DNA of 64,000 nt from Candidatus Cloacimonadales bacterium (GCA_963662275.1 OY759316.1:384001-448000); one strand, 5' to 3'. Positions 12,504 through 28,600 are shown, counted from the first letter of the stretch. The notes: generated by a model not told the origin, from the letters alone. Numbers and translations: made by a program.

Positions 12504-13721
12504 TTAATCATTATACAAAGCTGAGATTCTTTGAATTCTATCGATATTATCGGTAAAGATTTCGATTAATTCCGGGTCAAAAGCAGAACCGGAACATCTT
12601 TCCAATTCATCCATCACCTGTGCCTGATCCCAAGCTTCCTTATAAACGCGGGGACGGGAAAGTGCATCATAAACATCTGCAATTTTGACTATGCGTCCCC
12701 ATATGGAAATCTCTTCACCTTTGAGTCCAGTACCCATTTTGTGGTTTGTATGTGAATCAAGGTCTTTCTCTAAACTGTAATGTCCCGGGTAACCGGTTCC
12801 ATCCCAGCTTTCGTGGTGTCTTAACGCTATTTCAGCCGCCATGATTTCCAATTCGGAGGAGCTTTCCTTAAATAACTGAAATCCCAGGAGAGCATGCTGC
12901 TTGATGATATCGTATTCTTCAGGAGTCAATTTCCCCGGTTTTTTAAGAATATGATCCGGAACTGCAACTTTTCCAACATCATGCAGCATAGATGCAACAC
13001 GTAACATATCTTTCCGGATATCGATTTCAGATTCCGGGATTTTATTTTTACGTGCCCATACTTCATATAATTCAGCAGAATAAGCGCCAACTCTATTCAC
13101 GTGAGGACCGGTTTCCAGCGGGTCACGTAATTCAGCCATACTAATCATTCTCAATATAATTGTTCGAGTTAGTTCTGCTTTTTCTAGAGCAACTGCAGCG
13201 TTGTTTGCTAAATGTTCAAAGAAGGGTATCTCTTTATTTTTAAAAGGAACGACATTACCATCCTTGTCCTTGGCATTGATTAGTTGCAGGACACCAACAA
13301 TACGACTCGTTCCTGTTTTCAAAGGGATACTCAACATGGATTTCGTTTTATAACCAGCCATTACATCCACAATTTTACCAAATTGATATGAGGATTTTGG
13401 TGATATTTTATAAACATCAGGAATATTGAGGATTTCACCTGTTTCTGCAACGTAACCGGAGATTTTTAAGCGATCTATAGGAAATGACATTGTTGAGTAG
13501 ATGAGCTTTTGTCCATCGGGTAACTTACTTTGTTTAGTATCATTCTGTGAATATCGGAGATGAAGCATACCTTTCTGGCATTTATAGATTGTACCTGCGT
13601 CAGCAGATGCAAAACGTCTCGCTTCTGTTAATATCCTTTCAAGTAGGAAGTCTTCGTCGGTTACTTCTGTCATTAATTTACCTAAGCGAATGATTTCTTC
13701 TAACTTATCTCTCGTGTTCAT
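12504..13721 (-). CDS. GAF + HD-GYP cyclic-dinucleotide phosphodiesterase
   Basis: GAF motifs (ISGYVAETGEILNIPDVY..D..GYKTKSML..GVLQLIN); HDVGK, HHESWDGTGYP, DVYDAL..R.YK. Confidence 0.92.
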   Translation of the reverse strand: MNTRDKLEEIIRLGKLMTEVTDEDFLLERILTEARRFASADAGTIYKCQKGMLHLRYSQNDTKQSKLPDGQKLIYSTMSFPIDRLKISGYVAETGEILNIPDVYKISPKSSYQFGKIVDVMAGYKTKSMLSIPLKTGTSRIVGVLQLINAKDKDGNVVPFKNKEIPFFEHLANNAAVALEKAELTRTIILRMISMAELRDPLETGPHVNRVGAYSAELYEVWARKNKIPESEIDIRKDMLRVASMLHDVGKVAVPDHILKKPGKLTPEEYDIIKQHALLGFQLFKESSSELEIMAAEIALRHHESWDGTGYPGHYSLEKDLDSHTNHKMGTGLKGEEISIWGRIVKIADVYDALSRPRVYKEAWDQAQVMDELERCSGSAFDPELIEIFTDNIDRIQRISALYND

Positions 13722-13733
13722 ATACTGCACCAC

Positions 13734-14864
13734 CTATTTAGTATTCATTGTAGGAATAGCGAAATTTTCATTTTTCTTATGTGTATTTTTCCAAATATCT
13801 ACTTTTTGTTTTTGTTCAGTGATTTGTTCTGGTGTTAGAGTTTTTTCCAAATCGTCTGCCATTGGAACGTATTGCTTCATGTCTTCGAAGGAACTATAAT
13901 TTGCTGCTAATGTCATCCAGTAATAGGCATCAGGAATACTTTTTACCAAGCCATTACCCTGGGAAGCTAGAACTGCCAGGCTATAGAAAGCACGAACATT
14001 ATTTTGTTCAGATGCTTTCTTTAACCATGTCACTGCTTCAGTGAAGTTCTGTTCCACTCCTGAACCTTGTCCATAAAGAATACCCAAGGCACTTTCACTA
14101 TCAGCATTTCCCTGCTCTGCTGACTTGCGATACCATAGGGCTGCCTCCGCATAATCAACATCGACCCCGGCACCTTGCGCATAGTAATTACCGACGATTG
14201 ATTGCGCTATCGCACTACCTTTATCGGCTGCTATTTTAAATTGGTTTAAAGCTAATGAATAATCTTGTTTGACTCCCCTGCCTTCCTGGTAAAGAACACC
14301 GAGTTGTATGATCGCTTCTATTTGTCCTTGCTCAGCAGCTTTACTGTACCAGGTGACAGCTATGGCTTCGTCTTTTTCTACTCCCTGCCCTTTTTCATAA
14401 CAGTAACCCAAGTTATATTTTGCTAAGGAATTTTCCATATTTGCACTTTTACGAAAGAGTTTTACGGCTTTTTCAGGATCCTTTGTTACACCTAGACCAT
14501 TCAAATAACAAACTCCCAGCAATCCAGATGCTTCAGGTATATTATTATCAGATGATTTTGTCAGCCATTCTGTTGCCGTTGTGTAATCCTGTGCAATACC
14601 TTCGCCAACGTAATACATGTAACCCAAATTATATTGGGCAGAAGGATGGTTCTTCTTTGCAGCTTCTATAAACCAGTAATATGCTTCCTTCATATTTTTA
14701 ATTGCTCCAAGTGATCCTTCAGCATATCGGGTTCCTAAAACATATGCTGCTTCAGCAGAACCGTTTTCAGCAGAATTCCGAAGATCATCAATACTGTCTA
14801 TTGCAGATATTTGAGTGATAAAGCTGATAATAACAATATAAAATATGATGGCAATGAGTTTCAT
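13734..14864 (-). CDS. Secreted SEL1-like repeat protein
   Basis: Signal peptide followed by about 8 AQYNLG.MY..G.G..QD...A..W..KAA.QG repeats. Confidence 0.92.
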   Translation of the reverse strand: MKLIAIIFYIVIISFITQISAIDSIDDLRNSAENGSAEAAYVLGTRYAEGSLGAIKNMKEAYYWFIEAAKKNHPSAQYNLGYMYYVGEGIAQDYTTATEWLTKSSDNNIPEASGLLGVCYLNGLGVTKDPEKAVKLFRKSANMENSLAKYNLGYCYEKGQGVEKDEAIAVTWYSKAAEQGQIEAIIQLGVLYQEGRGVKQDYSLALNQFKIAADKGSAIAQSIVGNYYAQGAGVDVDYAEAALWYRKSAEQGNADSESALGILYGQGSGVEQNFTEAVTWLKKASEQNNVRAFYSLAVLASQGNGLVKSIPDAYYWMTLAANYSSFEDMKQYVPMADDLEKTLTPEQITEQKQKVDIWKNTHKKNENFAIPTMNTK

Positions 14865-14887
14865 TAATACTCCTTATAATGACGTTA

Positions 14888-14916
14888 ATAATAGGAATGG
14901 GTAATCTTAATGTCAA
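14888..14916 (-). promoter_or_regulatory. Sigma70-type promoter of the SEL1/HD-GYP pair
   Basis: Minus strand TTGACA-N17-TATTAT. Confidence 0.7.
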
Positions 14917-15225
14917 ATGTTTTTATAATATAGCCTGAAATAGTCCAGTTTTAAAAGAAGTGATTGTATCATGTTATATCTTGAAGAATGTTACTTTAGG
15001 AATTCTCTTCCAGAGGTATTGGGTTCCAAACCCAACAAAAAAAATTGAGAATTACAAAATAATCGGTTTTTGTGGGAAACGTCCGGATAGTATATGCAGA
15101 AGGGAACAGCGTATAGCGTACAGCGAACAGGGCGGAAAGGGAGCGGAAGGAAAATTCGGAGAGGAAGAGGAAGGAATTCACAGAAAATAGCGTGAGAAAT
15201 CTCTTAGGATGTGGGGGATTTGTGA

Positions 15226-15310
15226 GCGGATCCTGAGGGAATCCTGAGGGAGTCCTGAGAGAAGTGCGAAGTTCGAACTTCGAAGTGCGAAGTACAGAGA
15301 AGAGAAGGGG
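15226..15310 (+). repeat. 3x 11-mer tandem repeat followed by 5x GAAGTNC heptamer and a purine tract
   Basis: GCGGATCCTGA GGGAATCCTGA GGGAGTCCTGA (15226-15258); GAAGTGC GAAGTTC GAACTTC GAAGTGC GAAGTAC (15261-15295). Confidence 0.8.
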
Positions 15311-15523
15311 GAATTTAAGATTAATCTCTTTTCACTTTCGATTAGACTATAAAAAAGCCATTTGAAAAGAGATAGCTGTTTGAAAACAGCGTTCCATGAT
15401 TTTATAAAAACTCTTGACATAATAATGATTCAATTTCAACATTTAATAAAATAATAATAAATATCCATATTCAGAATCTTCCTTTTCTAGTATTAAAAAA
15501 TTCATAGTTAGAGAGTAGGCAAA

Positions 15524-17320
15524 ATGAATAATGAAATAACTCAGAATCAATTAAGCAGCGAAGAAATTCGAAATTCCCTGGAAAATATGGAGATCGAAAA
15601 AGCAAAGCTCGAATCAGCGTTGGTACCATTGTTAATCATGCTAACGGACTTGAAGAATTCCACAGTGTATTTTGATCGATTAGGAGATATTGCAGCAAAA
15701 TCTGTTATTTTTGCGCATAACCAGTTACTATTTCCTATTATTGAACAACATCACGGCATTATCGTAAAGACTACCGGAGATGGTATATTAGCATCCTTCG
15801 AAAGTGCTGCAGACGGTGTTGCTGCAAGTATTCAAATGCAGAAAGCTCTCAAAGAATTCAACAAGAGAAGAGAACCGGAATCAATCATGGAAATCAGGAT
15901 AGGTTTACATTATGGTAGGACTTTGGTTTTTGAGAAGGATGTTTTTGGAGATTCCATTAATACTGCTGCCCGTATTGAAGCCTTGGCAGACAGTGGACAG
16001 ATATTTCTTTCTAAAGCAGTTGTGGATGCAGCGCAATTAACTGAAGAATCGCTTTGTTTCATTGGGCATGTCTTACTGAAAGGCAAGCTTGTACCTGTGA
16101 GGATCTACGGATTAGTATGGGAAACAATGAATCCTGACCTTCTTTCAAGCTATGAAGAAAAGAAACGTACATTTGAGAAATTAAAATATGATAAGAACCA
16201 GCCTCAGATTAAAATAGAAGGTAATATTGCTTTGAAGGAAGATGAAACAGTACACATAGAATCTAAAAATAACCCATTCCTATATCGTTCTGCAATAACA
16301 CAACCTGCCTATTTCTATGGTAGGGATACTTTAATTCATAAAATATTCTCACGCCTGACCGCTCAACGTCCACAGTCGATATCGCTATACGGTGAAAGAA
16401 GAATTGGCAAATCCTCGCTTCTCTGGCAGATACAAAGCTTGAAATTACGTAAGCAATTTGTCCCTGACATTGAGAAGTATATCTTCATCTACATGGACAT
16501 CCAGTCCATGCGTTCAGCGACTATTGAGCACTTTATAGAGCATTTATTTAATGCAGTAAAAGACTCTTTCAGGGGTCAAATTCAATTTGAATTGCCCTGT
16601 GATTATCATGGTTTTACCTCTTTAGTAAGCGAATTGACAAAGGCAGATATCAAGATTATCGTTTTGTTTGATGAGTTCGACCTGATTACCCTCAATCATA
16701 ACTTCACAGAAGAATTCTATTCCTGGCTGCGTTCGATTGCCAGTCAATATCCGGTCGCATTCGTCACATCATCCTTTTCTCAATTACAGAATTTATGCGC
16801 TACCAAGAAAATATCAGATTCCCCTTTCTTCAATATCTTTACAGCTTTCCAAGTGAGTCCATTTACCCGGTTGGAAGCGGAAACTATGATCAAAGGCTTG
16901 CTGGAAATATCTCAAAGCGGTTATGATTTTTCTTCCTGGTATGATGAAATATGCAGACAGGCAGGATTACTGCCGTTCTTTATCCAGATATACTGTGCTA
17001 ATTTGTACGATTTATTTCCATCAAATCCAACTCTATCCGATGTAGCAGAAGCCTATTTTGAAGAAGCCAGGGAACACTTTGATCATATTATCCGTAATCT
17101 GACGAAAGAAGAAGCACAATGCATTGATTGCTTAATTTCAGGTAAGAAAATCGGGAAGAACCTGGTTCCTTCCTATCAGAATCTGTTGCGTAAGGGCTAT
17201 CTAATCGAAACTGAAGGTAAAGTAACCTCTTTTTCGAATCGGTTTGCCACCTATTTCACACAGCAAGCCACGAAGAATTCGAACCAGTCCATTTGGAGAC
17301 GTTTATGGAACAAATCCTGA
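15524..17320 (+). CDS. Class III adenylate cyclase fused to a STAND-like P-loop ATPase and winged helix
   Basis: Cyclase motifs LTDLKNST, KTTGDG, RIGLHYG, DVFGDSINTAARIE, LKGK. ATPase motifs NPF..FYGR, GERRIGKSS, VLFDEFD, AGLLPFFIQ, LLRKGYL. Confidence 0.9.
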   Translation: MNNEITQNQLSSEEIRNSLENMEIEKAKLESALVPLLIMLTDLKNSTVYFDRLGDIAAKSVIFAHNQLLFPIIEQHHGIIVKTTGDGILASFESAADGVAASIQMQKALKEFNKRREPESIMEIRIGLHYGRTLVFEKDVFGDSINTAARIEALADSGQIFLSKAVVDAAQLTEESLCFIGHVLLKGKLVPVRIYGLVWETMNPDLLSSYEEKKRTFEKLKYDKNQPQIKIEGNIALKEDETVHIESKNNPFLYRSAITQPAYFYGRDTLIHKIFSRLTAQRPQSISLYGERRIGKSSLLWQIQSLKLRKQFVPDIEKYIFIYMDIQSMRSATIEHFIEHLFNAVKDSFRGQIQFELPCDYHGFTSLVSELTKADIKIIVLFDEFDLITLNHNFTEEFYSWLRSIASQYPVAFVTSSFSQLQNLCATKKISDSPFFNIFTAFQVSPFTRLEAETMIKGLLEISQSGYDFSSWYDEICRQAGLLPFFIQIYCANLYDLFPSNPTLSDVAEAYFEEAREHFDHIIRNLTKEEAQCIDCLISGKKIGKNLVPSYQNLLRKGYLIETEGKVTSFSNRFATYFTQQATKNSNQSIWRRLWNKS

Positions 17321-18279
17321 TTGATCGCCCACAATACACATCGCGCATATATTCACGGTTATTTGCTTCACGCCCCCAATCCATATCGATTATTGGTGAT
17401 TGGCAATTGGGTAAGTCATCTATATTGCAGCTTTTATCTGATGAAAGCTCATGCAATCAATACCAGTTTAATCATATGAATCCCATCTTTATCCTCTTTG
17501 ATTTAAAAGAATCAAAAGCAGATTGGCAGACATTCCTTTCATCCATATATGCCAAGTTAGCTCAATATTCAAATACGAAGCAGGATGTTACTCAAGTAGA
17601 TTCAGATATCTACCAGGCTTTACAAAAATTAGTGGTAGAATTACAGGAAAAGTATGCAATCTGCCTGTTGATCGATAATTTTGAATTACTGACCCAGAAT
17701 CCTGAAACACCCTTAGAATTCTTTTCCTATCTGCGATCCCTGGCAAATACCTACCGGCTTGCCTACATTACAACATCCAGAGCCTCACTGCAATCGCTAT
17801 GCGTAAGTTCAGATATCTGTGAATCGCCATTTTTTAACATCTTCACAAATCTGGAATTAAAGAATTTATCGGTGGACGAAGGAAAAACACTGTTAAATGC
17901 ATACAATATTACGGATAAAACGGAACTTGCCTTTGAAATAACCGGTGGGCATACTGGTCTATTCATGAAATGGATATTGTGGTTTGTTCATAACCAGGAT
18001 GTAGGGCATGATCAAATACAATCACAATTCTTTGACTCGGTTGAGTGGTATTGCCAGGAATGGTTTGCTCAATTCAGTCCTGATTACCAGGAAGTATTAA
18101 CGAAACTCGCCAAGCAGGAGAAAATCCCCTCTGATAAGCAGTATCTGATGGAATCACTGAAACGTAAAGGCTATCTTACTATTGCGAATACTATTTCTGC
18201 AAGGGCATTTTATAATTATCTGTTGCAGCAGGAATCAAAGCCTAAAGCTGGATTGTTCGCCAGGCTGTTTAAAAAGTAG
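17305..18279 (+). CDS. Stand-alone STAND-like ATPase, paralogous to the ATPase of the upstream gene, with degenerate motifs
   Basis: SRPQSISIIGDWQLGKSS, LLIDNFE, SPFFNIFT shared with the upstream gene, LKRKGYL; ATG 17305 after GGAG, overlapping the upstream stop. Confidence 0.85.
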   Translation: MEQILIDRPQYTSRIYSRLFASRPQSISIIGDWQLGKSSILQLLSDESSCNQYQFNHMNPIFILFDLKESKADWQTFLSSIYAKLAQYSNTKQDVTQVDSDIYQALQKLVVELQEKYAICLLIDNFELLTQNPETPLEFFSYLRSLANTYRLAYITTSRASLQSLCVSSDICESPFFNIFTNLELKNLSVDEGKTLLNAYNITDKTELAFEITGGHTGLFMKWILWFVHNQDVGHDQIQSQFFDSVEWYCQEWFAQFSPDYQEVLTKLAKQEKIPSDKQYLMESLKRKGYLTIANTISARAFYNYLLQQESKPKAGLFARLFKK

Positions 18280-18318
18280 GTATAAGAATTTAAGATTTAA
18301 GATGTAAGATTGGCAGAG

Positions 18319-18541
18319 CAGTCCGGTACGGACGATAGATAATAACGCTCGGATTTCAATCCGGCGAGAGATGACTCAAAGTGACAACCAGTCCGGTACG
18401 GACGATAGATAATAACGCTCGGATTTCAATCCGGCGAGAGATGACACGGAGATCATCTGTCGTCCCGATGGGACTTAGACCTTCTTCTTATATCCTGCAC
18501 CGGATTGAAATCCGGTGTTAATATGTTTCTTCCCTACGGGA
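18319..18541. repeat. Composite REP-like element: two 57-bp direct repeats plus degenerate inverted copies
   Basis: Identical CAGTCCGGTACGGACG...GGATTTCAATCCGGCGAGAGATGAC at 18319-18375 and 18389-18445; inverted copies at about 18455-18475 and 18497-18541. Confidence 0.85.
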
Positions 18542-18571
18542 ATACGAAACTACGAAATCTCAGGAGAGTGT

Positions 18572-21500
18572 ATGAGTTATAACCAGATACCCCAGAATCC
18601 TTATATCGTTGGAAATCCCATCCAATCGAGCAGTATGTTTTATGGACGGAATGAAGACTTCCTCTATATCAAGGATAAGCTTCAAAAAGAAGCACGGGGT
18701 CTGATTATTACACTCGCTGGGGAAAGACGAAGCGGGAAGACATCCATCCTGTTCCAAATCCTGAATGGCAGGCTGGGTGAAGGGTATCTTCCCTTCTTTG
18801 TCGATATGCAGGCAATGGCTGCAGTGGAATCAGATGCCCAATTTCTCAGTCGTTTGGATAACGTAATACGAACTCAATTAACTATCCAGGTTTCCGAGCA
18901 GGATTATCAAGGCAATAAATGGTCAGCTTTCGAAAATTTCCTCCATTCAATTAAAGAAGCATATACAGAGAAGAAAATCATATTCCTCCTGGATGAGTAT
19001 GAAATCATCGAAAACAAAATTGATAAACAAATGATTACAACAGAAATGATCACTTTCTTTGCCAATCTGATGGAAAATCATAACATCTTTTTCCTGTTTA
19101 CCGGTTCTAACAAATTGGAAGACCGCAATGCCACATATTGGAAAACACTCTTCAGTAAATCACAATATCGAAAGATCACTTTCCTTCAAAAAAAGGACTG
19201 TCTTGATTTAATAACAAAGCCTGTTGAAAACTATGTGATCTATACTCCTGATCAATTGGATAATATCTGGCGTCTCACAGCAGGACAGCCATTCTATACT
19301 CAGATCTTCTGCCAGAATATGGTGGATAGGCTGCAATTGGAACAGCATAATGAAGTGCTGGACAATGACATCGATGCTGTCATTAAAGATATTGTAGATA
19401 ATCCCATGCCCCAGATGATCTATTTCTGGCAGGAATTGGATGCTAAACATAAACTGACATTATCCATTTTAGCAGAAGTAATCAATACTAAAGATGACTG
19501 GGTAGACTGTGATGATCTAATGAAATGCCTGAAAAACCAAAAGATCGATATCAATATCCATGCTTCAGATTTTCATACTGCCATGGAAGAACTCTATCAT
19601 AATGATATCTTAACCAAGAAAGGCAAACAATACCAATTCCGTGTCGATATCTTTCGCTTCTGGATCAAGCAGGAACAGAATGTCTGGAAACTGCTGAGTG
19701 AGATAAAAATTGATAAAGAAAAGAGACCAGTACATCGTTTAACTCTTTCTATTGGTTTTGTTCTTATGGTACTTTTGATTATAGGTGGTTTATTCAGAAT
19801 TTATATAGTACTGAAACCTACATCTGAATTTGGTATGAGCAAAAATCGTGAAGCAATAAATTTGTATAAGCAAGCGCAGGATAGATTTGCAGAAAACGAC
19901 ACAAGCTTTGCTCTTCAAAACGTAAATCGTGCATTGGCAGCAGATTCCTCTTTTTTCATGGCAAAAATACTCAAAGCAGATATTCTGAAAGCACAGAATA
20001 ATCTTCCAGAAGCTCTTAAAGTATATCAGAATGCAGAAAACCAATATTATTATAGTACCGATGTCGGGGAAAAAATCAGTTCTATTCCAATTTCTTTCAA
20101 AACTGATGATAAGCTAGCTCAATGGAGAACGACAGATACAGAGGATTATTTTATCTATGATATGCTTTATATTTCTCATGTACTTTCAAATGACATGATT
20201 AAAGCAAATAAAAATCATAATCTTTATATTTATAGCTTAAGAAAGAATAAGTGGTTTTCTTTTCAGAATTCTGTATGTTTAATGACTGATAAGAAGGCTA
20301 TTTTCTTTTATAATATCCAAAATCAAGCTCTTTGTAAATTCGATGTTAACCGAGGGAAAACAATATGGAAAACGAAATTAACAGGTTTATTACAGAACTC
20401 ACTTATACCTGATATATCTGAAACAAAACATTGTAAGTATTTGATACTAAGAGAAAGGAAGCAGCTTTTTCTTTTTAATCAGGATACGGGAAAACTTGTC
20501 ATTCGTAAAGTCTATCCAAATAATATACAGAACGTCTTTTTCCTATCCAAGGATAACCGACTTTGGGTTGTCTTTGACCAAATGCATCAAATCCTCAGCT
20601 TACCAGACTTGTCTTTTATCACCCAAAAGACTATTCCAAATATGGATGTTTCTTTTGAGAAGGTCAATAATACAATCATTAGCTCTAATGATTCCAACAA
20701 TCACAGAACAGAGCTATTAGAGTATAAAGAACAGAATGGAAAGTTAAATCGAATTACAAATATCTTTGCATTCAACAATGAAAGTGGAAATGGAACTATG
20801 TTAAGTAAAAAGCTGCTCTATGTTTTAAATAATAATAAACCGCAGGTTTTTAATTTACAAACCAAACAGCTATATTCAATGTCCAATTTGAGCCGTTATC
20901 AAATTCTAAGCATGTATTCTAATCAGTATGAGATTGGAAATTATGACGACAGAATATTTTTCTTTACAGAAAAAGACTTATTGATCTATAATTTAAAAAG
21001 TCATAAAGTGCAAGAAGTTATTGCTCTTAATAAACTGACAGATTCTACCACTTCTTCCATTCCTACAGACATAGAATTTGATAAATATCGAAAACGTATT
21101 ATTTGTCTCTATTCGGATAAAACAGAATCAAATAATGTACAAAGCCAAGTAATATCCATTGTGGACATAAAGAAGAAGAGTATCATATACAGTAATCGTT
21201 TGGACATTAATACCCCAATATCATTCATTCAAAAAAATATGTACTCTTTTATACAATATGACGTTCTTGCTTACGCGAATCTCATTTGGAATGAAATTAA
21301 CTTCGTTTTAATGAATCCTGATAATTATCAAGTATCTTTTGTTGCGAAACTTGATATGATGCTGATATATAAAAATAAACTATTTATCATGAAAAACAGA
21401 GATGTGCTCTGTCTCAATACATTCCCTCGCCAAGATAATAAATACCTTCAAAAAATACAGGAAAATATCATTCTGTTGAGTTTCCAATTAAAACAGCCAA

Positions 21501-22990
21501 AAAACGTAATTGAAAGCTTTGATAAATTGATCAAATATGCTAAAACAGTCAACGATGTGAATGTCCTAAGGACTATAATTAATACTGTTCAAATATTCAA
21601 ACCTGAGATGCTAGGATATTATGTAACAAAATGTGTAAATCTTTCAAACGACCTTAACTCTCTTAAACCAGATATTAATTATTCAATGCAGCTAATTCCT
21701 TCAGCACGATTTAAGGATAAATTACTACCACATAATAGCTATGATGAACTGGAAAAATTGAATGATGAATTGGTTGCTCGAGTAGATGAAAATTCTGTTT
21801 TTAGAATAAATAATAACCAACCAGATCTTCTATATCAGGAAACAAATACTAACAACATCTACGTTGCGAGTGGAATATCATCGTATATTCAGAATACGGA
21901 ACCACCTAAATTGAACATAGTGGACAGGCAAAATCATGTTTTTACACATAATTTACCCTTTCCAAAGCAGATGAGAGCTGCAATCAACTGGTATGATGAA
22001 AACAATATAGTATATATAACCCAGGAACAATTTGGAGACGGCTTTAATTATGAAATGAGGCCAATGGATATCTATACAGGTAATAAATCTATCATTTGGC
22101 AGAAATGGAGTAGCAGTCTTCATCTAATAGGCATGATTCAAAGAGAGAATAAAGTTGGTCTCATGTACTCTGATAGTCTTGCTAAAGTCTATTATGTCAA
22201 AACACCTCAAAGCAAATTAATCATTCCCGATTTTTCCCAAATTCTGTCTGTTAATAGTAAAGACATTGAAAATTCAGATCAGATAATGATGAATGAATTT
22301 CCTAAATCAGTAATCACATATATCTCAAGTGGTAAAAATACTTCTGTGACACTCAGTAAGGATGAACTGTCTTCTGCGCAATTCATGAATTTGACAAAAC
22401 AATATATCCAATGGTTTGATGTGAGAAATTCAGTTTTTGAACCTATCATTGAACTCGATAAACCATGTAGTATTAGTCATAATGAAATTGAGATTTATGA
22501 TTCAATGATAGACGATAAATATATTATTCAAAGGGGAAAAGATGTAGAAAATAACGCTTTCTTTAATATAGCTTTCAATTGTTTAACAGGAGCTGTTTCA
22601 GATTACCAAGTCCTACCTGCATCAAATGATCGTAGCTCAATTACATATAAAAATTACTCGTTAATGGAAAGCAGTCTCAATATAGGGATGGTAAATATTA
22701 AACTATATAAACAAACTGCGAATGGTAAATTAGCGCTACTTTGGGAAAAACAGATACCGTATGACTTTGGATATCTTTATAATATTCAATCTGGTATTTG
22801 TACTTTAATATGTAATCTTTCTACTAATAATATATCGAACCGCCATCTTGTTTATCTCTCTGAAACAGACGGTCATATCATCAAATCATTCCCTATTTTG
22901 AATGATATGCAGTATTTTTCATTCACAAACCAACCTCCTATCCTCTTTCATAAGAAACTTGGGTTTTATGAATTACCAGCAGTCAAGTGA
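18572..22990 (+). CDS. STAND-like ATPase - TM helix - TPR - putative beta-propeller receptor-like protein
   Basis: NPYIVGNP..FYGR, GERRSGKTS, FLLDEYE, TAGQPFYTQ; TM LSIGFVLMVLLIIGGLF; TPR-like ALQNVNRALAADSSF..; PQQ-like FDVNRGKTIWK, FNQDTGK, LSETDGHII. ATG 18572 after AGGAG. Confidence 0.8.
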   Translation: MSYNQIPQNPYIVGNPIQSSSMFYGRNEDFLYIKDKLQKEARGLIITLAGERRSGKTSILFQILNGRLGEGYLPFFVDMQAMAAVESDAQFLSRLDNVIRTQLTIQVSEQDYQGNKWSAFENFLHSIKEAYTEKKIIFLLDEYEIIENKIDKQMITTEMITFFANLMENHNIFFLFTGSNKLEDRNATYWKTLFSKSQYRKITFLQKKDCLDLITKPVENYVIYTPDQLDNIWRLTAGQPFYTQIFCQNMVDRLQLEQHNEVLDNDIDAVIKDIVDNPMPQMIYFWQELDAKHKLTLSILAEVINTKDDWVDCDDLMKCLKNQKIDINIHASDFHTAMEELYHNDILTKKGKQYQFRVDIFRFWIKQEQNVWKLLSEIKIDKEKRPVHRLTLSIGFVLMVLLIIGGLFRIYIVLKPTSEFGMSKNREAINLYKQAQDRFAENDTSFALQNVNRALAADSSFFMAKILKADILKAQNNLPEALKVYQNAENQYYYSTDVGEKISSIPISFKTDDKLAQWRTTDTEDYFIYDMLYISHVLSNDMIKANKNHNLYIYSLRKNKWFSFQNSVCLMTDKKAIFFYNIQNQALCKFDVNRGKTIWKTKLTGLLQNSLIPDISETKHCKYLILRERKQLFLFNQDTGKLVIRKVYPNNIQNVFFLSKDNRLWVVFDQMHQILSLPDLSFITQKTIPNMDVSFEKVNNTIISSNDSNNHRTELLEYKEQNGKLNRITNIFAFNNESGNGTMLSKKLLYVLNNNKPQVFNLQTKQLYSMSNLSRYQILSMYSNQYEIGNYDDRIFFFTEKDLLIYNLKSHKVQEVIALNKLTDSTTSSIPTDIEFDKYRKRIICLYSDKTESNNVQSQVISIVDIKKKSIIYSNRLDINTPISFIQKNMYSFIQYDVLAYANLIWNEINFVLMNPDNYQVSFVAKLDMMLIYKNKLFIMKNRDVLCLNTFPRQDNKYLQKIQENIILLSFQLKQPKNVIESFDKLIKYAKTVNDVNVLRTIINTVQIFKPEMLGYYVTKCVNLSNDLNSLKPDINYSMQLIPSARFKDKLLPHNSYDELEKLNDELVARVDENSVFRINNNQPDLLYQETNTNNIYVASGISSYIQNTEPPKLNIVDRQNHVFTHNLPFPKQMRAAINWYDENNIVYITQEQFGDGFNYEMRPMDIYTGNKSIIWQKWSSSLHLIGMIQRENKVGLMYSDSLAKVYYVKTPQSKLIIPDFSQILSVNSKDIENSDQIMMNEFPKSVITYISSGKNTSVTLSKDELSSAQFMNLTKQYIQWFDVRNSVFEPIIELDKPCSISHNEIEIYDSMIDDKYIIQRGKDVENNAFFNIAFNCLTGAVSDYQVLPASNDRSSITYKNYSLMESSLNIGMVNIKLYKQTANGKLALLWEKQIPYDFGYLYNIQSGICTLICNLSTNNISNRHLVYLSETDGHIIKSFPILNDMQYFSFTNQPPILFHKKLGFYELPAVK

Positions 22991-23044
22991 AGTACGAAGT
23001 TCGAAGTGCGAAGTACGAAGTTGCAGAACAAGAAGAAGGGAAGA
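22989..23044 (+). repeat. GAAGTNC heptamer tandem repeat plus purine tract
   Basis: GAAGTAC GAAGTTC GAAGTGC GAAGTAC GAAGTTG, overlapping the stop codon. Confidence 0.8.
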
Positions 23045-23115
23045 TTGATTGAATAGAGCACGTAGTGTGAAAGATAATAGCCTAGCGTAAGCTATGGGTA
23101 ATCATAGGAGAATGT

Positions 23116-25119
23116 ATGAGTTATAATCAGATACCTCAGAATCCTTATATCGTGGGAAATCCCATCCAATCGAGTTCAATGTTTTATGGTCGGAATGAAG
23201 ACTTCCTCTATATCAAGGATAAGCTTCAAAAAGAAGCACGGGGACTGATTATTACACTTGCAGGAGAAAGACGAAGCGGGAAGACATCCATCCTCTTCCA
23301 AATCCTGAACGGCAGGCTGGGTGAAGAGTATCTTCCATTCTTTGTGGACATGCAGGCAATGGCAGCAGTGGAATCGGATGCCCAGTTTCTCAGCCGTTTG
23401 GATAATGTGATCAGAACTCAGTTGACAATCCCTGTTGCAGAACAGGATTACCAAGGTAATAAATGGTCTGCATTCGAAAACTTCCTCAATTCTGTGAAAG
23501 AAGCATATCCGGGGAAGAAAATCATATTCCTCTTAGATGAGTATGAAATCATTGAAAATAAAATAGATAAACAAATGATTACGGCAGAAATGATCACTTT
23601 CTTCGCTAATCTCATGGAAAATCATAACATCTTTTTTCTTTTCACTGGTTCGACAAAGCTTGAAGATCGCAATGCATCTTATTGGAAAACACTCTTCAGT
23701 AAATCACAATATCGAAAGATCACTTTTCTCAAGAAACAGGATTGTATCGATTTGATCACTAAGCCTGTTGAGAATTTCGTTATCTATACTCCTGATCAAT
23801 TGGAGAATATCTGGCGTCTGACTGCCGGTCAGCCATTCTACACACAGATATTCTGTCAGAATATGGTGGATAGACTGCAATTGGAACAGCGTAATGAAGT
23901 ACTTGAAGAAGATATTGATGCTGTCATTACCGATATTGTTGACAATCCTATGCCCCAGATGATCTATTTCTGGCAGGAACTGGATGCCAAACATAAACTT
24001 ACACTTTCCCTCCTGGCAGAAATCAATACGACGAAAGATAAATGGGCTGATTGTGATGATTTATTAAAATGTCTGAAAAACCAGAAGATAGATATCAACA
24101 TTCACGCATCGGATTTCCATACTGCTTTTGAAGAGCTTTATCATAATGACATTCTATCAAAAAAAGGCAAACAGTACCAATTCCGTGTCGATATCTTCCG
24201 CTTCTGGATCAAACAGGAACAGAATGTCTGGAAACTACTCAAGGAAGTGAATCTTGATAAAGAAGCCAAACCTACACGGAATAACATCCTGGCAGTGAGT
24301 ATTGTTGGGCTCTTGGTAGTGATTTGTGCTGGTGTGCTTTTTTATGCGTTGAAGCCAAAACCAGCAACAATCCAGAGTTCCAAACCCACACAAAATACTA
24401 AAATCGAGGAAATATATGTGGATGGAGGTACGTTCACTATGGGTGACACAGCAGGTGGTGGAATTGAGGATGAAAAACCTACGCATCAAGTGAAGCTATC
24501 CTCTTTTTATATAGGGAAATACGAAGTTACCCAGGAGCAGTGGCAGGATGTCATGAACTATAATCCTTCCGTTTTCAGAGGTGAAAGCCTTCCGGTTGAG
24601 GCGATAAGCTGGTACGACTGCATTGAATTCTGCAACAAACTAAGCCTGCAGAAAAGATTAATGCCTTGTTATAGCGGAGATCGAAACAATATAACGTGCA
24701 ATTGGACTGCCAATGGTTACAGGCTTCTCACGGAAGCAGAATGGGAATATGCTGCCAAAGGTGGTAAAAAGAGCAAGGGTTACAAATATTCAGGCGATAA
24801 CGAACCGCAAAGTGTGGCTTGGTACGCTGCAAATTCCAGCAGCAGGACACACCAGGTTGGTCAAAAACGAGCAAACGAACTGGGATTATCTGATATGAGC
24901 GGTAATGTCTGGGAATGGTGCTGGGATAGGTTTAAAGCAGATTATTATAGCCTGAGTCCTATATCAAATCCGAGGGGACCAGAAGAAAAATCGTACCGGC
25001 TGCTGCGCGGTGGCTCCTGGTTCTTCAATGAATACGGTTGTCGTGTTTCTACCCGTAATTATCTTAACGAAGGAGACAGGCGAGATAACATCGGATTTCG
25101 ATTATGCAGAAGGAAATGA
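23116..25119 (+). CDS. STAND-like ATPase - TM helix - FGE-sulfatase (SUMF1/C-lectin fold) protein
   Basis: N-terminal ~375 aa near-identical to the preceding gene; TM ILAVSIVGLLVVICAGVLFYAL; GGTFTMG, EKPTHQV, YEVTQ, PVEAISW, RLLTEAEWEYAA, DMSGNVWEWC, RGGSW, GFRL. Confidence 0.92.
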   Translation: MSYNQIPQNPYIVGNPIQSSSMFYGRNEDFLYIKDKLQKEARGLIITLAGERRSGKTSILFQILNGRLGEEYLPFFVDMQAMAAVESDAQFLSRLDNVIRTQLTIPVAEQDYQGNKWSAFENFLNSVKEAYPGKKIIFLLDEYEIIENKIDKQMITAEMITFFANLMENHNIFFLFTGSTKLEDRNASYWKTLFSKSQYRKITFLKKQDCIDLITKPVENFVIYTPDQLENIWRLTAGQPFYTQIFCQNMVDRLQLEQRNEVLEEDIDAVITDIVDNPMPQMIYFWQELDAKHKLTLSLLAEINTTKDKWADCDDLLKCLKNQKIDINIHASDFHTAFEELYHNDILSKKGKQYQFRVDIFRFWIKQEQNVWKLLKEVNLDKEAKPTRNNILAVSIVGLLVVICAGVLFYALKPKPATIQSSKPTQNTKIEEIYVDGGTFTMGDTAGGGIEDEKPTHQVKLSSFYIGKYEVTQEQWQDVMNYNPSVFRGESLPVEAISWYDCIEFCNKLSLQKRLMPCYSGDRNNITCNWTANGYRLLTEAEWEYAAKGGKKSKGYKYSGDNEPQSVAWYAANSSSRTHQVGQKRANELGLSDMSGNVWEWCWDRFKADYYSLSPISNPRGPEEKSYRLLRGGSWFFNEYGCRVSTRNYLNEGDRRDNIGFRLCRRK

Positions 25120-25222
25120 AGAGCAGAAATTACGAATTACGAATTATGAATTGAAGAGTATAGGGGCAATACAAATTACAGAGAAAATACACACATATAG
25201 AACATACGGCTCTTAATTGATT

Positions 25223-25277
25223 ACCGAGGGACGACCAAGGGATGACCGAGAGATGACCGAGACTAAACCGAGACTGC
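25223..25277 (+). repeat. 5x degenerate 11-mer tandem repeat
   Basis: ACCGAGGGACG ACCAAGGGATG ACCGAGAGATG ACCGAGACTAA ACCGAGACTGC. Confidence 0.75.
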
Positions 25278-25386
25278 TCTCGGTAATGGCAGGCTGATGG
25301 TTGGTTTAGGTTTCAATTATAATTGGCTATTCATTTAGGTAGAACAATAGAATTAAGAATTGCGGATAGGCTTGCTGATGCTTGAA

Positions 25387-25657
25387 ACGGAACGCCTCAC
25401 CCCGTGAGGTGGCAAAAGGCACCCCGTGCGTTTTCTACTTTTTGCAGAGAACATGGGAGAGAAGGGAAGAAGGACTTGCAGAATGGAAGATGGAAGATTG
25501 TGCAGAGAAGAGCAGAGAATTTATTTCCGTAAATCCATACGAAGAATCTAACTATCCGCTTAGACTTTGCTTAGGGCAAGCCAATACCACTCGTTAATTG
25601 ACGGGGGTTAAAACGCACGGGGTGCGTTTTGCCACCTCACGGGGTGAGGCGTTCCGT
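25387..25657. mobile_element. MITE/REPIN-like element with 48-bp terminal inverted repeats
   Basis: 25387-25434 vs 25610-25657 match at 47/48; each arm holds two hairpins with CCC loops; lies between convergent genes. Confidence 0.65.
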
Positions 25658-25689
25658 CTGCAACTTTTAACTTTTAATTTTTAATTCTC

Positions 25690-28600
25690 CTAAGGCAGAT
25701 CCCTTTCCGCAGTGATTTTATAGAAATGTATGGGTCTGAGTCTTTCTTCTACGTAAGTAGGTGTTTCCGTGGTCATGACTAAATTGGGGAAAGTGCCATT
25801 CGGGTCTGTATCTACATAAATACGGAAACGTGAAACGGGCAGAGGATATGTCCAATTCAATTCAACTTTTTGCGTTTCGGTGTTGAAGCTGACGGTTGGG
25901 GTTGGTACGGGTGGCAGGGCATTCCAAATGACCTGTGATGGTCCGAAGGCATTATTCGTTTCAATTGCTTCCGCAACGCTTGCATTTTCATCGACAAAGG
26001 CATAGGAAGTCCAGGTTCCAGCCACATCAGAGCTGACCAGGACGAAAGTGACGGTTGCACTAGCCCAGGCATCGAGGGAGTTGATAGTCATATATTGATT
26101 TCCCACAGTTCCTGTGGTAGGGGCGGATGCCCTTGTATAATACAAATCCACACGTATAGGTGTGCCGACTCCCACAGCGCTATTGTTCATGATAGTCACA
26201 TCCACAGTATTCGCATCACAGACATAGAGATTATTGCTGTTATAGAACATACTCACGATCTTCAAATCAGGAAGCGGTCCATTCCAATTGATCAGGTTAT
26301 TGGGATCGCTCTCATAAGAAGCACCAGAGAAAGCTCCTGAAGCGCCGCTCATATTGATCAGTCCCTGGTTTGCTGCTTTGGTGACATTCTTGGCATTGCT
26401 GCCTGCATTGGTGGGGAATGAGGCATAAGGAATGGTGATCGTTGCATTGTTTTCTATTTTCAGCAAAGTACCGCCTGCTACACCATTTTGGAATGTACAA
26501 TAAGAGAAAGGATGAAGAGGATCCAGTATCGAACCGTTCATCAGGTAAACACCATTGGCAGTCATGTATTCAAAAGTGGCATATTCAGCACTTAAAGTGG
26601 CACCGCTTGCCAAGTAGAATAAGTAATTCCCTGTGGATTGATGCGTTATTTTTGCCAAATGCCCGGATGCTCCGATCACTTCCAGGTAACCACCTGTATT
26701 GACTGTCAGTGTCTTCGTATTTGCCACCTCAAGCCAGGCATCGGAATCAAGGCTTATTTTACCTGTGCTGTTAATGGTCACGTTGCCGGTTGTGCGGAAG
26801 TATTTATGATTCATAAGGAGTGTTCCTGAATTGATGGTCATGGTTCCGGTCATCGCTACGACCATAGGATATTGCATCAGCACAGTTGTCGCAGCGGTCT
26901 TTTCTATTGTGAGATTATAAATATAACTGGTACGGCAATCATAGAAAAAGTTCTGGCTGTTCCCGCCCTTGAGTTTGATCGTATTTAGCCTGCTGCCATT
27001 CCAAATGCCATTGACGCTCAAGTATACATCCCCTGAGAATTCATGAATATATCCTGTGGTTGAATCATACCATTCACCACGTGTAAGGGTCAGGTTACCT
27101 AATACTTTACAGAATTTGGTTGGGATGAATCTCCCTGCAGTTTTATTGACGATCAGGTTATAAGCATTTATCACTGATGCTGAGTTGGTGATAGTCTGAT
27201 CTGCTGCACCGTTGAAGGTCAAGGTGGAGGTTCCGGGATTGAATCCCTGGGTTTCATTATAAACTCCGTTTGAATCAGTCCAGTTACCTCCGACAGAGAT
27301 ATTCAAGCCCATATCGGTATTGGCATTCAAGCCTGCACCTGAGGATATGACCAAATTGCCTGTCACAGCAAGTGTGGAGTTGTCATTCATCTCGAATGTG
27401 CCATCTGTAATCGTAAGGTTACCACCAACAGTACAGGTCTGTCCTGCAGCTAGTTCAAAGGCATCTGTACTGGCGTTTGTATTATTCAGCACGAGATTAT
27501 TGAAGGTTTCAGAGGTCAGCAATCCAGTATCCACTGAATTGCCAGCAAAGGTAACGGTGTTACTAATTTCGAAGAAGCCACTCGTACCAACCGTATTCGT
27601 CCAATTGCCATAAACCGTAATCGCATAGCTGGATTGCAGGATACCGCTATAGATCTGCATATCTCCCCGAATTGTAATCGCTGATGTCTGAAGCGCAGTG
27701 TAGCCACGGGTCGAAGTTCGAAGTGCGAAGTCCGAAGTTCGAAGTGAAGAAGGAAGAGAAGAATCAGAGGAATTGCGAAGTTCGAAGTCCGAAGTTCGAA
27801 GTGAAGAAGGAAGAGAAGAATCATAGGAAGTTCGAAGTTCGAAGTTCGAAGTTCGAAGTGAAGAAGGAAGAGAAGAATCATAGGAATTGCGAAGTTCGAA
27901 GTCCGAAGTGCGAAGTGAAGAAGGAAGGTTTACCCCCCTGCCCCCCTCATCAAGGGGGGGTATTGGGTCAGCAGACCCATCCCCGGAACGGGCACCTTTG
28001 TTTATGCGGAGGGTGTAGAATGAACTGCCGGCTGCCATATCAAGTACACCGTCTGTAGTACCGGTCATTTCGATTGTACCACCGGCAGGAACGAAATTGG
28101 TTCTGTAGCAGTAAATATCTCCCACAACACTGATCACACCCCCGGAGATATCCGAATTGAAAGTATAGCTATTAAGAGGCAGTTTGATACCCCAGGATTT
28201 AAAATTGAGTTGTCCGCTGTCCATCAGGATGGAAGCATTTGCCAAATAGGCAAATTCATAGGCTTTGCTGCCTCCATAGATGTTGATGATACCGTTTTGA
28301 GTGATATACAGATTACCGTTGAGATCACACCAACTGCCTGTATCCTGGTGCAGTTCGATGGTTCCATTTGTTGCATAGTATTTTCCATAAATTCCAGCAT
28401 CCACCAGGTCATTCACGATAATTATACCTAATCCTGTTGCTCTCAATGTTCCGCCTCCATCGTAGGAAGCAATTGTGGAAGTAAGTCCGTAATGCTGTTC
28501 TACAGTGGCTGTGGAGCTATTGTTATTTAGCAAATTGATAGTCATGTTATCCTGGAAATAGACGATATTGGAAACAAAGAGTGTATTCCCAACTGTGCAG

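Follow-up and report, generated by a model that had tools for sequence, protein, structure and literature searches.

The window analysed here, a 64,000-nucleotide (nt) stretch of a Candidatus Cloacimonadales bacterium genome (GCA_963662275.1, OY759316.1:384001-448000), contains a group of four genes, g1–g4, each of which encodes a nucleoside triphosphatase (NTPase) module of the STAND (signal transduction ATPases with numerous domains) type. Open reading frame (ORF) calling places the four genes in the same orientation on the + strand, within the span 15524-25119. The gene order in the Cloacimonadota form of the locus is effector (E), bare module (B) and receptor (R); here, two R genes are present. 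The gene products probably constitute a paired-STAND transmembrane signalling system with cyclic AMP (cAMP) as the output. The genes and their parts are listed below, with the sources of evidence in brackets.

15524..17320, + strand: g1, effector E, a predicted class III adenylate cyclase joined to an nSTAND2 NTPase, 598 aa (ORF, Pfam, homologues)
15635..16087, + strand: catalytic domain of the g1 cyclase, residues 38-188 (Pfam, alignment with Ma1120 4wp3, invariant residues)
16256..17317, + strand: NTPase–helical–winged-helix module of g1, residues 245-598 (module alignment, E clade in the tree, chain of the complex model)
17305..18279, + strand: g2, a bare nSTAND2 NTPase of the B clade, about 324 aa (Pfam, tree)
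18572..22990, + strand: g3, receptor R1, with an ATPase_2-type module, a transmembrane (TM) helix and a large predicted ectodomain, 1472 aa (Pfam, hydropathy, g3/g4 alignment)
19757..19813, + strand: TM helix of g3 (hydropathy scan)
19814..22987, + strand: ectodomain of g3, N-terminal TPR-like helices and then beta-rich regions (weak TPR_16 match, AlphaFold2 (AF2) model, Atlas)
23116..25119, + strand: g4, receptor R2, with a module as in g3, a TM helix and an FGE-sulfatase/TvpA-like predicted ectodomain, 667 aa (Pfam, hydropathy, alignments)
23116..24291, + strand: cytoplasmic NTPase–helical–winged-helix module of g4 (AF2, Foldseek, chain 1 of the complex model)
24286..24342, + strand: TM helix of g4 (hydropathy scan)
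24406..25107, + strand: ectodomain of g4, FGE-sulfatase (C-type-lectin-like) fold (Pfam E 3.8e-51, 2y3c E 5.7e-45)

The likely start codon of g2 is ATG at 17305, with TTG at 17293 as an alternative in the ORF list; the 5′ end of g2 and the 3′ end of g1 overlap by 16 nt. The start of g3 was placed at ATG 18572, and not at GTG 18515 as in the ORF list, because both the homology between g3 and g4 and an AGGAG box begin there.

NTPase modules, cyclase and receptors

A sequence-only reading of this DNA had proposed four co-oriented genes that carry P-loop and winged-helix modules of the same class. The ORFs lie as it had placed them, and one NTPase–helical–winged-helix module of about 350 aa can be aligned across all four proteins. 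The single class holds in the sense of homology, but not at the level of Pfam families. The products of g1 and g2 match nSTAND2 (PF20702, cut-off 24 bits) with 107.1 bits (residues 280-529) and 61.8 bits, respectively, and are the sole nSTAND2 matches genome-wide; those of g3 and g4 match ATPase_2 (PF01637, cut-off 33.2 bits) with 44.8 and 48 bits. Against nSTAND2, g4 reaches only 13 bits (cut-off 24), and g3 does not appear among the matches. When PDB sequences were searched with a profile of the four modules, no hit had an E value below 0.036.

The STAND definition of Leipe et al. from 2004 reportedly comprises a Walker A motif GxxxxGK[ST], an acidic Walker B motif, an hhGR[ED]xE motif, a helical domain with a GxP motif and a winged helix. 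The P-loop signature of this definition is present in all four proteins, and it is kept in the E, B and R clades (169 modules). Walker A reads GERRIGKS in g1, GDWQLGKS in g2 and GERRSGKT in g3 and g4; the respective Walker B motifs are FDEFD, IDNFE and LDEYE. A motif of the hhGR[ED]xE type lies upstream of Walker A as FYGRD in g1 and as FYGRNED in g3 and g4; g2 has no FYGR motif, and the module alignment shows LIDRPQ at that place. The GxP motif appears as TAGQPFY in the receptor clade and as aG.fPff in the effector clade.

The clades were read as sides of branches in a FastTree tree of the 169 modules. All receptor modules lie on one side of a branch with a value of 100 (marked with an asterisk in the tree), all bare modules on one side of another (99, marked likewise), and the effectors form the remainder; g1, g2, g3 and g4 are each grouped with their Cloacimonadota orthologues. 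Each clade has invariant motifs of its own: GERRIGKSS, FDEF[DE], DSPFFNIF and LRS in the E clade; GxxKxGK[ST]S, DDF[HN], ESPFFNIF and LRS in the B clade; NPYIVGNP, GERRSGKTS, DEYE and DNPxPQMIY.W in the R clade. In g2, Walker B contains DN, not DE. The arginine at the LRS position is kept in E (R403) and B, and there is no conserved arginine at this position in R.

The N-terminal part of g1 (residues 38-188) scores 47.1 bits in Pfam Guanylate_cyc (cut-off 21.9). Among proteins with a solved structure, the cyclase Ma1120 (4wp3, E 8.5e-23) is its nearest relative, to which the motifs LTD, KTTGDG and DVFGDSINTAAR of g1 were aligned. Residues D42, K82, D86, D139, N146 and R150 do not vary among 24 homologues drawn from several phyla; we take them to be the two metal-binding Asp residues, the adenine-specifying Lys/Asp pair and the transition-state Asn/Arg pair. 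By score and catalytic residues, the domain qualifies as a class III nucleotidyl cyclase at the level of sequence, as had been claimed for the first gene, and its catalytic residues are intact. Assignment to NCBIfam families TIGR04510 or TIGR03903 was rejected, with scores of 48.3 bits against a cut-off of 400 and 17.6 against 705.75. The genome encodes three cNMP_binding ORFs, which could read cAMP.

A single hydrophobic helix directly follows the module in each receptor, at residues 415-433 of g3 (P0003) and 391-409 of g4 (P0004); the same hydropathy scan found no TM helix in g1 or g2. Since no signal peptide is present and the TM helix lies behind the module, the ATPase of g3 and g4 would be cytoplasmic and the C-terminal part would lie outside. 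A TM helix and a probable extracytoplasmic domain had been expected for both proteins from the sequence; the expected division of sensor and effector between separate polypeptides that share a module type is likewise borne out by Pfam matches and the module alignment. The two receptors are 87% identical over residues 1-415 and unrelated past the TM helix. Their DNA has an identity of 92% over the first 300 nt, a similarity that begins 16 nt upstream of the ATG. This pattern identifies g3 and g4, as far as their alignment goes, as a lineage-specific duplication of the receptor onto a TvpA-like domain.

The ectodomain of g4 matches Pfam FGE-sulfatase with E 3.8e-51, and its best solved relative is the variable protein TvpA of Treponema denticola (2y3c, E 5.7e-45). 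The similarity to formylglycine-generating enzymes, scored at the level of the domain, is much lower (E 1e-20 to 1e-12). TvpA-type identity with diversification by a diversity-generating retroelement (DGR) was considered and rejected, the genome containing no match to the last ~160 nt of g4 that could be a template repeat. The genome contains 18 RVT_1 matches (for example at C1:724408, 735338 and 754728); 17 of these are near-identical ORFs of 444-465 aa, which probably represent copies of one retroelement, for example a group II intron. FGE-sulfatase matches number 70 over dozens of ORFs (for example at C1:2908000-2917600), including one ORF of 3333 aa with many tandem copies; the domain of g4 shares 58-68% identity with the three paralogues that it matches best.

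The ectodomain of g3 is about 1050 aa long, and the DNA in the interval 20001-22000 has a GC content of about 30%. Apart from a weak match to Pfam TPR_16, the region has no family. Atlas proposes PQQ_2/WD40 with a score of just 0.83, a lead and no result, and a word-based homologue search with this ectodomain returned the self-match only. Orthologues with an ectodomain of the g3 type are found in two Cloacimonadota metagenome-assembled genomes (MAGs; L017 and L018).

Pairing across genomes and the predicted complex

More than 742 homologues of g1 were found; they are cyclase–nSTAND2 or kinase–cyclase–nSTAND2 fusions. A locus search with g1 alone gave one weak relative. An effector profile search, with one genome per species, gave 424 relatives among 517 pattern matches, of which 80 loci were kept. 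In 68 of the 80, an adjacent gene on the same strand encodes a module like that of g3 and g4 (phmmer E ~1e-60 to 1e-190). Among the 12 loci without a receptor, eight have their first system gene within 300 nt of a contig end. A receptor profile search gave 226 relatives among 272 stretches, with 74 new locus ids; 29 overlap the effector set and 45 do not. Of these 45, 29 have a whole or cut nSTAND2 partner: the effector is complete in 21, and the other eight hold a bare nSTAND2 or, where the locus ends, part of an nSTAND2, kinase or cyclase sequence. A further ten end too near the receptor gene downstream for pairing to be judged. A neighbourhood of an effector NTPase and an NTPase–TM–variable-domain protein, which had been anticipated from the one locus, is thus conserved across many phyla, to judge by gene order and sequence similarity in both locus sets.

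Of 1.84 billion cluster representatives, 3432 match the receptor module at E<=1e-30, and the single TM helix abutting the module is also found in receptors of other phyla. As the sequence-only reading had supposed, the domain attached to it varies. In a sample of 53 receptor-family proteins, the ectodomain families were PEGA (16), Reg_prop (13), CarboxypepD_reg (10), Y_Y_Y (6), Peripla_BP_6 (2), FGE-sulfatase (2), PD40 (2) and others. The ectodomain is placed either C-terminal to the ATPase–TM unit or between a signal/TM segment and the TM–ATPase unit. nSTAND2 was also matched in three of the 53 proteins; one of them, P0125, is a fusion of nSTAND2 and a receptor module, but, being a metagenome gene call, it may be a frameshift artefact.

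As its output, the effector module carries a Ser/Thr kinase or a cyclase, in some proteins the two together. Of the 34 cyclase-bearing loci of the first set, 24 contain the bare module, and of the 46 kinase-only loci none does; the bare module also occurs beside a caspase variant. This variant, in a Bacteroidales MAG (L098:1120-9892), consists of an nSTAND2–caspase effector, a receptor-type module of 381 aa without a TM helix, a bare nSTAND2 and a receptor of 763 aa; a caspase–FGE-sulfatase gene lies on the opposite strand. In a KSB1 MAG (L079:11050-12870), a kinase-type system is directly followed by a separate 607-aa cyclase-domain protein. Two loci have a receptor only (L139) or a receptor and a bare module (L132), and the same MAGs hold receptor–effector systems on other contigs (L136/L040 and L124/L044, respectively); the system paired with L132 is itself without a bare module. 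These split loci suggest that components can act in trans. Secreted proteins are intercalated in other phyla: outer-membrane-barrel-like ORFs with a terminal F, which were found in 12 spirochaete loci and, seven in number, in six Calditrichia loci, and a ThuA-like ORF in eight loci. Neither the barrel-like nor the ThuA-like ORFs have a match in the genome to which the window belongs.

The AF2 model of the cytoplasmic module of g4 has a mean pLDDT (predicted local distance difference test) of 89.8 and consists of an NTPase domain, a helical domain and a C-terminal domain with helices and a beta-hairpin (winged helix). The best Foldseek matches are archaeal ORC/Cdc6 (1w5t, E 9.2e-12), SSO1545 (2fna, E 1.9e-11) and PAB2304 (2qen, TM-scores 0.59/0.64), followed by CED-4 and plant resistosome chains.

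Residues 1-392 of g4 were modelled in complex with residues 245-598 of g1, using a separate alignment for each and three controls. The interface score ipSAE was 0.68, 0.68 and 0.60, with 0.00 for the best control; partner pLDDT did not fall below 83, and no fewer than 81% of the contacts were common to the runs. Among solved complexes, 116 of 157 reach the pass mark, as do two of 215 mismatched pairs, counts that are only roughly valid here because own alignments were used for modelling. The ATPase modules of g4 and g1 are accordingly predicted by the model to bind, in line with the interaction expected earlier. On the receptor side, the predicted interface includes residues 8-16 (NPYIVGNP), 276-281 (DNPMPQ), R52/R53 of Walker A and E142 of Walker B; on the effector side, it includes residues 269-287, 403-408 (around the LRS arginine) and 433-443 (SPFFNIF). 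Since the confident contacts fall on them, the invariant motifs that define the clades map to the predicted interface. In the model, the nucleotide site of the receptor faces the conserved arginine of the effector.

Other features lie in the g2–g3 spacer and upstream of g1.

18319..18445, no strand: two perfect 57-nt direct repeats with a period of 70 in the g2–g3 spacer (repeat search; no Rfam match)
12504..14864, − strand: divergent neighbours in the same variable island, a GAF-HD_5 protein (12504-13733) and a Sel1-repeat protein (13734-14864) (Pfam)

The spacer is 292 nt long and contains a GC-rich hairpin with a T-rich tail (18497-18518), located 3′ of the repeats. A scan for promoters and terminators found nothing reliable beyond the shuffled expectation, and the two Rfam matches in 14500-26000 both lie outside the operon and far under their gathering scores. 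The GAF-HD_5 protein (HD-GYP-like) is encoded two genes upstream of g1 in the divergent direction and could be a cyclic-nucleotide-regulated phosphohydrolase. Its match in the same-genus genome has an identity of only 29%, and GAF-HD-like ORFs were found near the system in just four distinct spirochaete loci. The GAF-HD and Sel1 genes were considered as parts of the system and set aside, as they are not conserved beside the Cloacimonadota orthologues; the link is unproven.

Proposed mechanism and rival explanations

Bacteria are known to have few means of passing a signal across the cytoplasmic membrane, namely histidine kinases, chemoreceptors, membrane Ser/Thr kinases, anti-sigma factors and membrane cyclases. 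In the present system, the protein that spans the membrane carries no output and the output enzyme lacks a sensor; the two share only an ATP-driven oligomerisation module. In the proposed mechanism, g3 and g4 would be alternative receptors, each with an outside ectodomain, one TM helix and a cytoplasmic switch module. The cytosolic effector would be g1, in which a sister switch module is fused to the class III adenylate cyclase; g2, a third type of module with no other domain, may serve as an adaptor. Binding of a ligand by the ectodomain would cause the receptor NTPase to dock head-to-tail on the module of g1, and probably on g2 too. E and B would supply the conserved arginine (R403 in E) that the receptor clade lacks, and the receptor would act as the seed; as the arginine is absent from the R clade, assembly may be directional, judging by the complex model. 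Oligomerisation would bring the cyclase domains together. Class III cyclases are active only as dimers. The cAMP made would then be read by cNMP-binding proteins encoded elsewhere in the genome.

The complete system is best described, on present sequence comparisons, as a real, conserved and uncharacterised transmembrane variant of paired-STAND systems, coupled to a kinase or a cyclase. More tentatively, it may exemplify a general, so far undescribed mode of bacterial transmembrane signalling, in which a ligand-bound receptor NTPase without the trans-acting arginine seeds the directional assembly of arginine-bearing effector and adaptor NTPases, in the manner of NAIP/NLRC4, and so switches on kinases, cyclases or caspases; the receptors would be interchangeable and sometimes encoded elsewhere, as in a sensor/helper network. 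If the coupling is real, it amounts to a modular receptor-to-effector relay of the NLR (nucleotide-binding leucine-rich repeat protein) type, present in thousands of protein clusters of many mostly uncultivated phyla.

Several findings weigh against cAMP signalling by this assembly. Of 151 genomes sampled from the phylum, three have a full-length orthologue of g1; in a same-genus genome that is 99% complete (G123), no such orthologue was found. The operon sits in a variable hotspot. A stretch of 20.9 kb (window positions 12223-33116) with the GAF-HD and Sel1 genes, the four NTPase genes and a 2383-aa CARDB-bearing ORF is bounded by acyl-CoA dehydrogenase and DUF3307 genes; in G123, the counterparts of these two genes (93% and 71% identity, respectively) are separated by only 3.5 kb, in which an unrelated ORF of 958 aa lies. 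The ectodomain of g3 is only 23-25% identical to those of its orthologues, against 69-70% in the ATPase module, and its AF2 model, built with three sequences, has a mean pLDDT of 44.7 (N-terminal helices, then beta-rich stretches). Four effector loci with ample flanks have no receptor (L033, L046, L057 and L090), six of the 45 receptor-seeded loci have no partner despite at least 7 kb of downstream flank, and in L098 the effector module carries a caspase domain. Finally, the modelled complex is a dimer whose scores are the predictor's own confidence, and it may reflect generic AAA+/STAND packing, although no PDB sequence is a homologue of the module.

Patchiness, the hotspot, fast ectodomain divergence and the caspase relative fit a conflict system as well as signalling. 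The same architecture and assembly might therefore have a counter-invader role, a less probable yet serious alternative: the receptors would detect molecules of phages, predators or competitors, and cAMP, or kinase or caspase activity in the relatives, would trigger a protective or suicidal response. The duplication of the receptor onto a new sensor would suit this role, as would the swapping of effectors, including a caspase beside the caspase–FGE gene of L098, the proximity of the g4 ectodomain to a variable protein of T. denticola, and the weak matches of the cyclase to PycC. FGE-type (FGS) domains also recur in predicted conflict systems, according to the accessible text of PMC7159879. PADLOC, however, found no system among the window proteins, and its matches to PycC are weak and confined to the cyclase (best E 2.8e-7). 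In other phyla, four of 103 flanking ORFs from 14 loci match its defence models at E<=1e-10, and all four are generic (a UvrD-type helicase, a protease-like ORF, a further cyclase and an ATPase). Folds that sense nutrients or the envelope (Reg_prop/Y_Y_Y, Peripla_BP_6, PEGA) are the common ones among the ectodomains, and the enzymes that prevail as outputs, Ser/Thr kinase and cyclase, belong to signalling; the operon contains no toxic effector activated by cNMP, and g4 has no DGR template repeat. Signalling is thus rated more likely than a conflict role; the molecular mechanism would be the same either way.

The two remaining explanations are both improbable. In one of them, no hetero-oligomers form: g1 would be a self-regulated cyclase, g3 and g4 would be membrane ATPases with an envelope function, and the clustering would reflect co-regulation or tandem duplication. 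The recent tandem duplication of g3 and g4 agrees with this, as do the receptor and effector genes without a neighbour and the single-polypeptide cyclase–STAND fusions known elsewhere (ACYC+APATPase+TPR, as given in the accessible part of PMC8195603). Yet two anciently diverged clades stay paired across many phyla although their surroundings change, neither g1 nor g2 contains a sensor domain, the predicted interface falls on invariant clade-specific motifs, and a fusion protein unites both types of module. In the other, which we rate marginally lower still, the receptors serve as anchors or scaffolds, which would attach to the wall or envelope through their ectodomains and place a kinase or cyclase at a membrane site, with the NTPase as an assembly chaperone. 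PEGA and CarboxypepD_reg, given as the most frequent ectodomains, are envelope-associated, and PEGA is described as peptidoglycan-associating in the portion of PMC7159879 available; the outer-membrane-barrel-like genes within spirochaete and Calditrichia operons point the same way. Against an anchoring function stand the other ectodomains, which are ligand-binding folds (Peripla_BP_6/ANF_receptor, Reg_prop/Y_Y_Y and the TvpA-like lectin fold), and the presence of two receptors with different ectodomains for one effector, which fits alternative inputs better than one address. We retain a ligand-gated cAMP signalling system as the probable function of g1–g4.

Comparison with known systems

The sequence-only reading had not recognised the locus as a named system. 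This agrees with the PADLOC result, but a soluble two-gene nSTAND2 system was published in 2021 by Kaur, Iyer, Burroughs and Aravind in eLife (PMC8195603) and, on the accessible text, is the closest published kind. It is presented there as a mobile two-gene operon and predicted counter-invader system. Both proteins are STAND NTPases with a winged helix, for which a toroidal hetero-multimer completed by arginine fingers was proposed; the subunit with eroded, inactive NTPase motifs carries a GT4 or HEPN output. Adjacent STAND NTPases with a variable output on one of them are common to both systems, and g1 and g2 belong to the same Pfam family. However, the effector-bearing NTPase of that system is eroded, whereas the E clade described here is intact (invariant GERRIGKSS and FDEF[DE]), which places it outside that system as the available passages define it. 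Receptors and effectors alike have intact Walker A and B motifs as clades, and the effector is paired with a receptor that spans the membrane; the published system, so far as it is described in these passages, is soluble. The outputs found here are cyclase, kinase and caspase instead of HEPN and GT4, and the same passages list no TM segment, ectodomain, kinase or cyclase.

The iSTAND ternary MoxR–vWA systems described by Kaur et al. (eLife 2020, PMC7159879) contain, according to the part of that paper at hand, TM segments and PEGA, OmpA, PASTA or Sel1 domains, and membrane-proximal action was proposed for them. STAND-related modules, TM segments and envelope-binding domains such as PEGA are shared features. 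In those systems, though, the STAND module is stated to be inactive, whereas the NTPase motifs are intact here, and no MoxR or vWA gene was found here. The actinobacterial ACYC+APATPase+TPR fusions, as excerpted from PMC8195603, resemble g1 in joining a class III cyclase to a STAND NTPase, and oligomerisation could control the cyclase in both; they differ in combining sensor, switch and output in one soluble polypeptide of the AP-ATPase clade. Literature searches found no description of a kinase– or cyclase–nSTAND2 protein paired with a TM receptor, which is no proof that none exists. The accessible passages of a 2026 STAND survey preprint (10.64898/2026.01.04.697583) contain neither "cyclase" nor "two-gene"; its supplements may list the clade.

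Pycsar consists of the PycC cyclase and a cNMP-activated effector. The present locus is similar in having a class III-type cyclase in an accessory locus, with weak matches to PycC. The cyclase of g1 differs in being fused to an NTPase and in having what is presumably the Lys/Asp specificity pair of adenylate cyclases. Identity with Pycsar was rejected, as no cNMP-binding effector gene lies in or beside the operon. SSO1545 (2fna), PAB2304 (2qen) and ORC/Cdc6 are the best structural matches to the g4 module, and the first two have ATPase_2 (PF01637) in common with g3 and g4. Unlike g3 and g4, all of them are soluble, without a TM helix, an ectodomain or a known paired effector; the identity is 13-16%.

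In paired and networked NLRs, such as NAIP/NLRC4 and sensor/helper pairs, a sensor NOD (nucleotide-binding oligomerisation domain) protein without an output activates a relative that carries the output, and several sensors may share a helper. Likewise, g3 and g4 would share g1, and some genomes contain orphan extra receptors. In contrast to paired NLRs, the modules described here belong to the ATPase_2/nSTAND2 clade, with no membership of the NLRs at the sequence level. The sensors are transmembrane proteins with predicted extracytoplasmic domains, and the output would be a second messenger or phosphorylation and not a pore or a caspase platform, with the exception of L098. If the coupling between receptor and effector is real, the system would provide a simple and testable bacterial model for the communication between sensor and helper NOD proteins.

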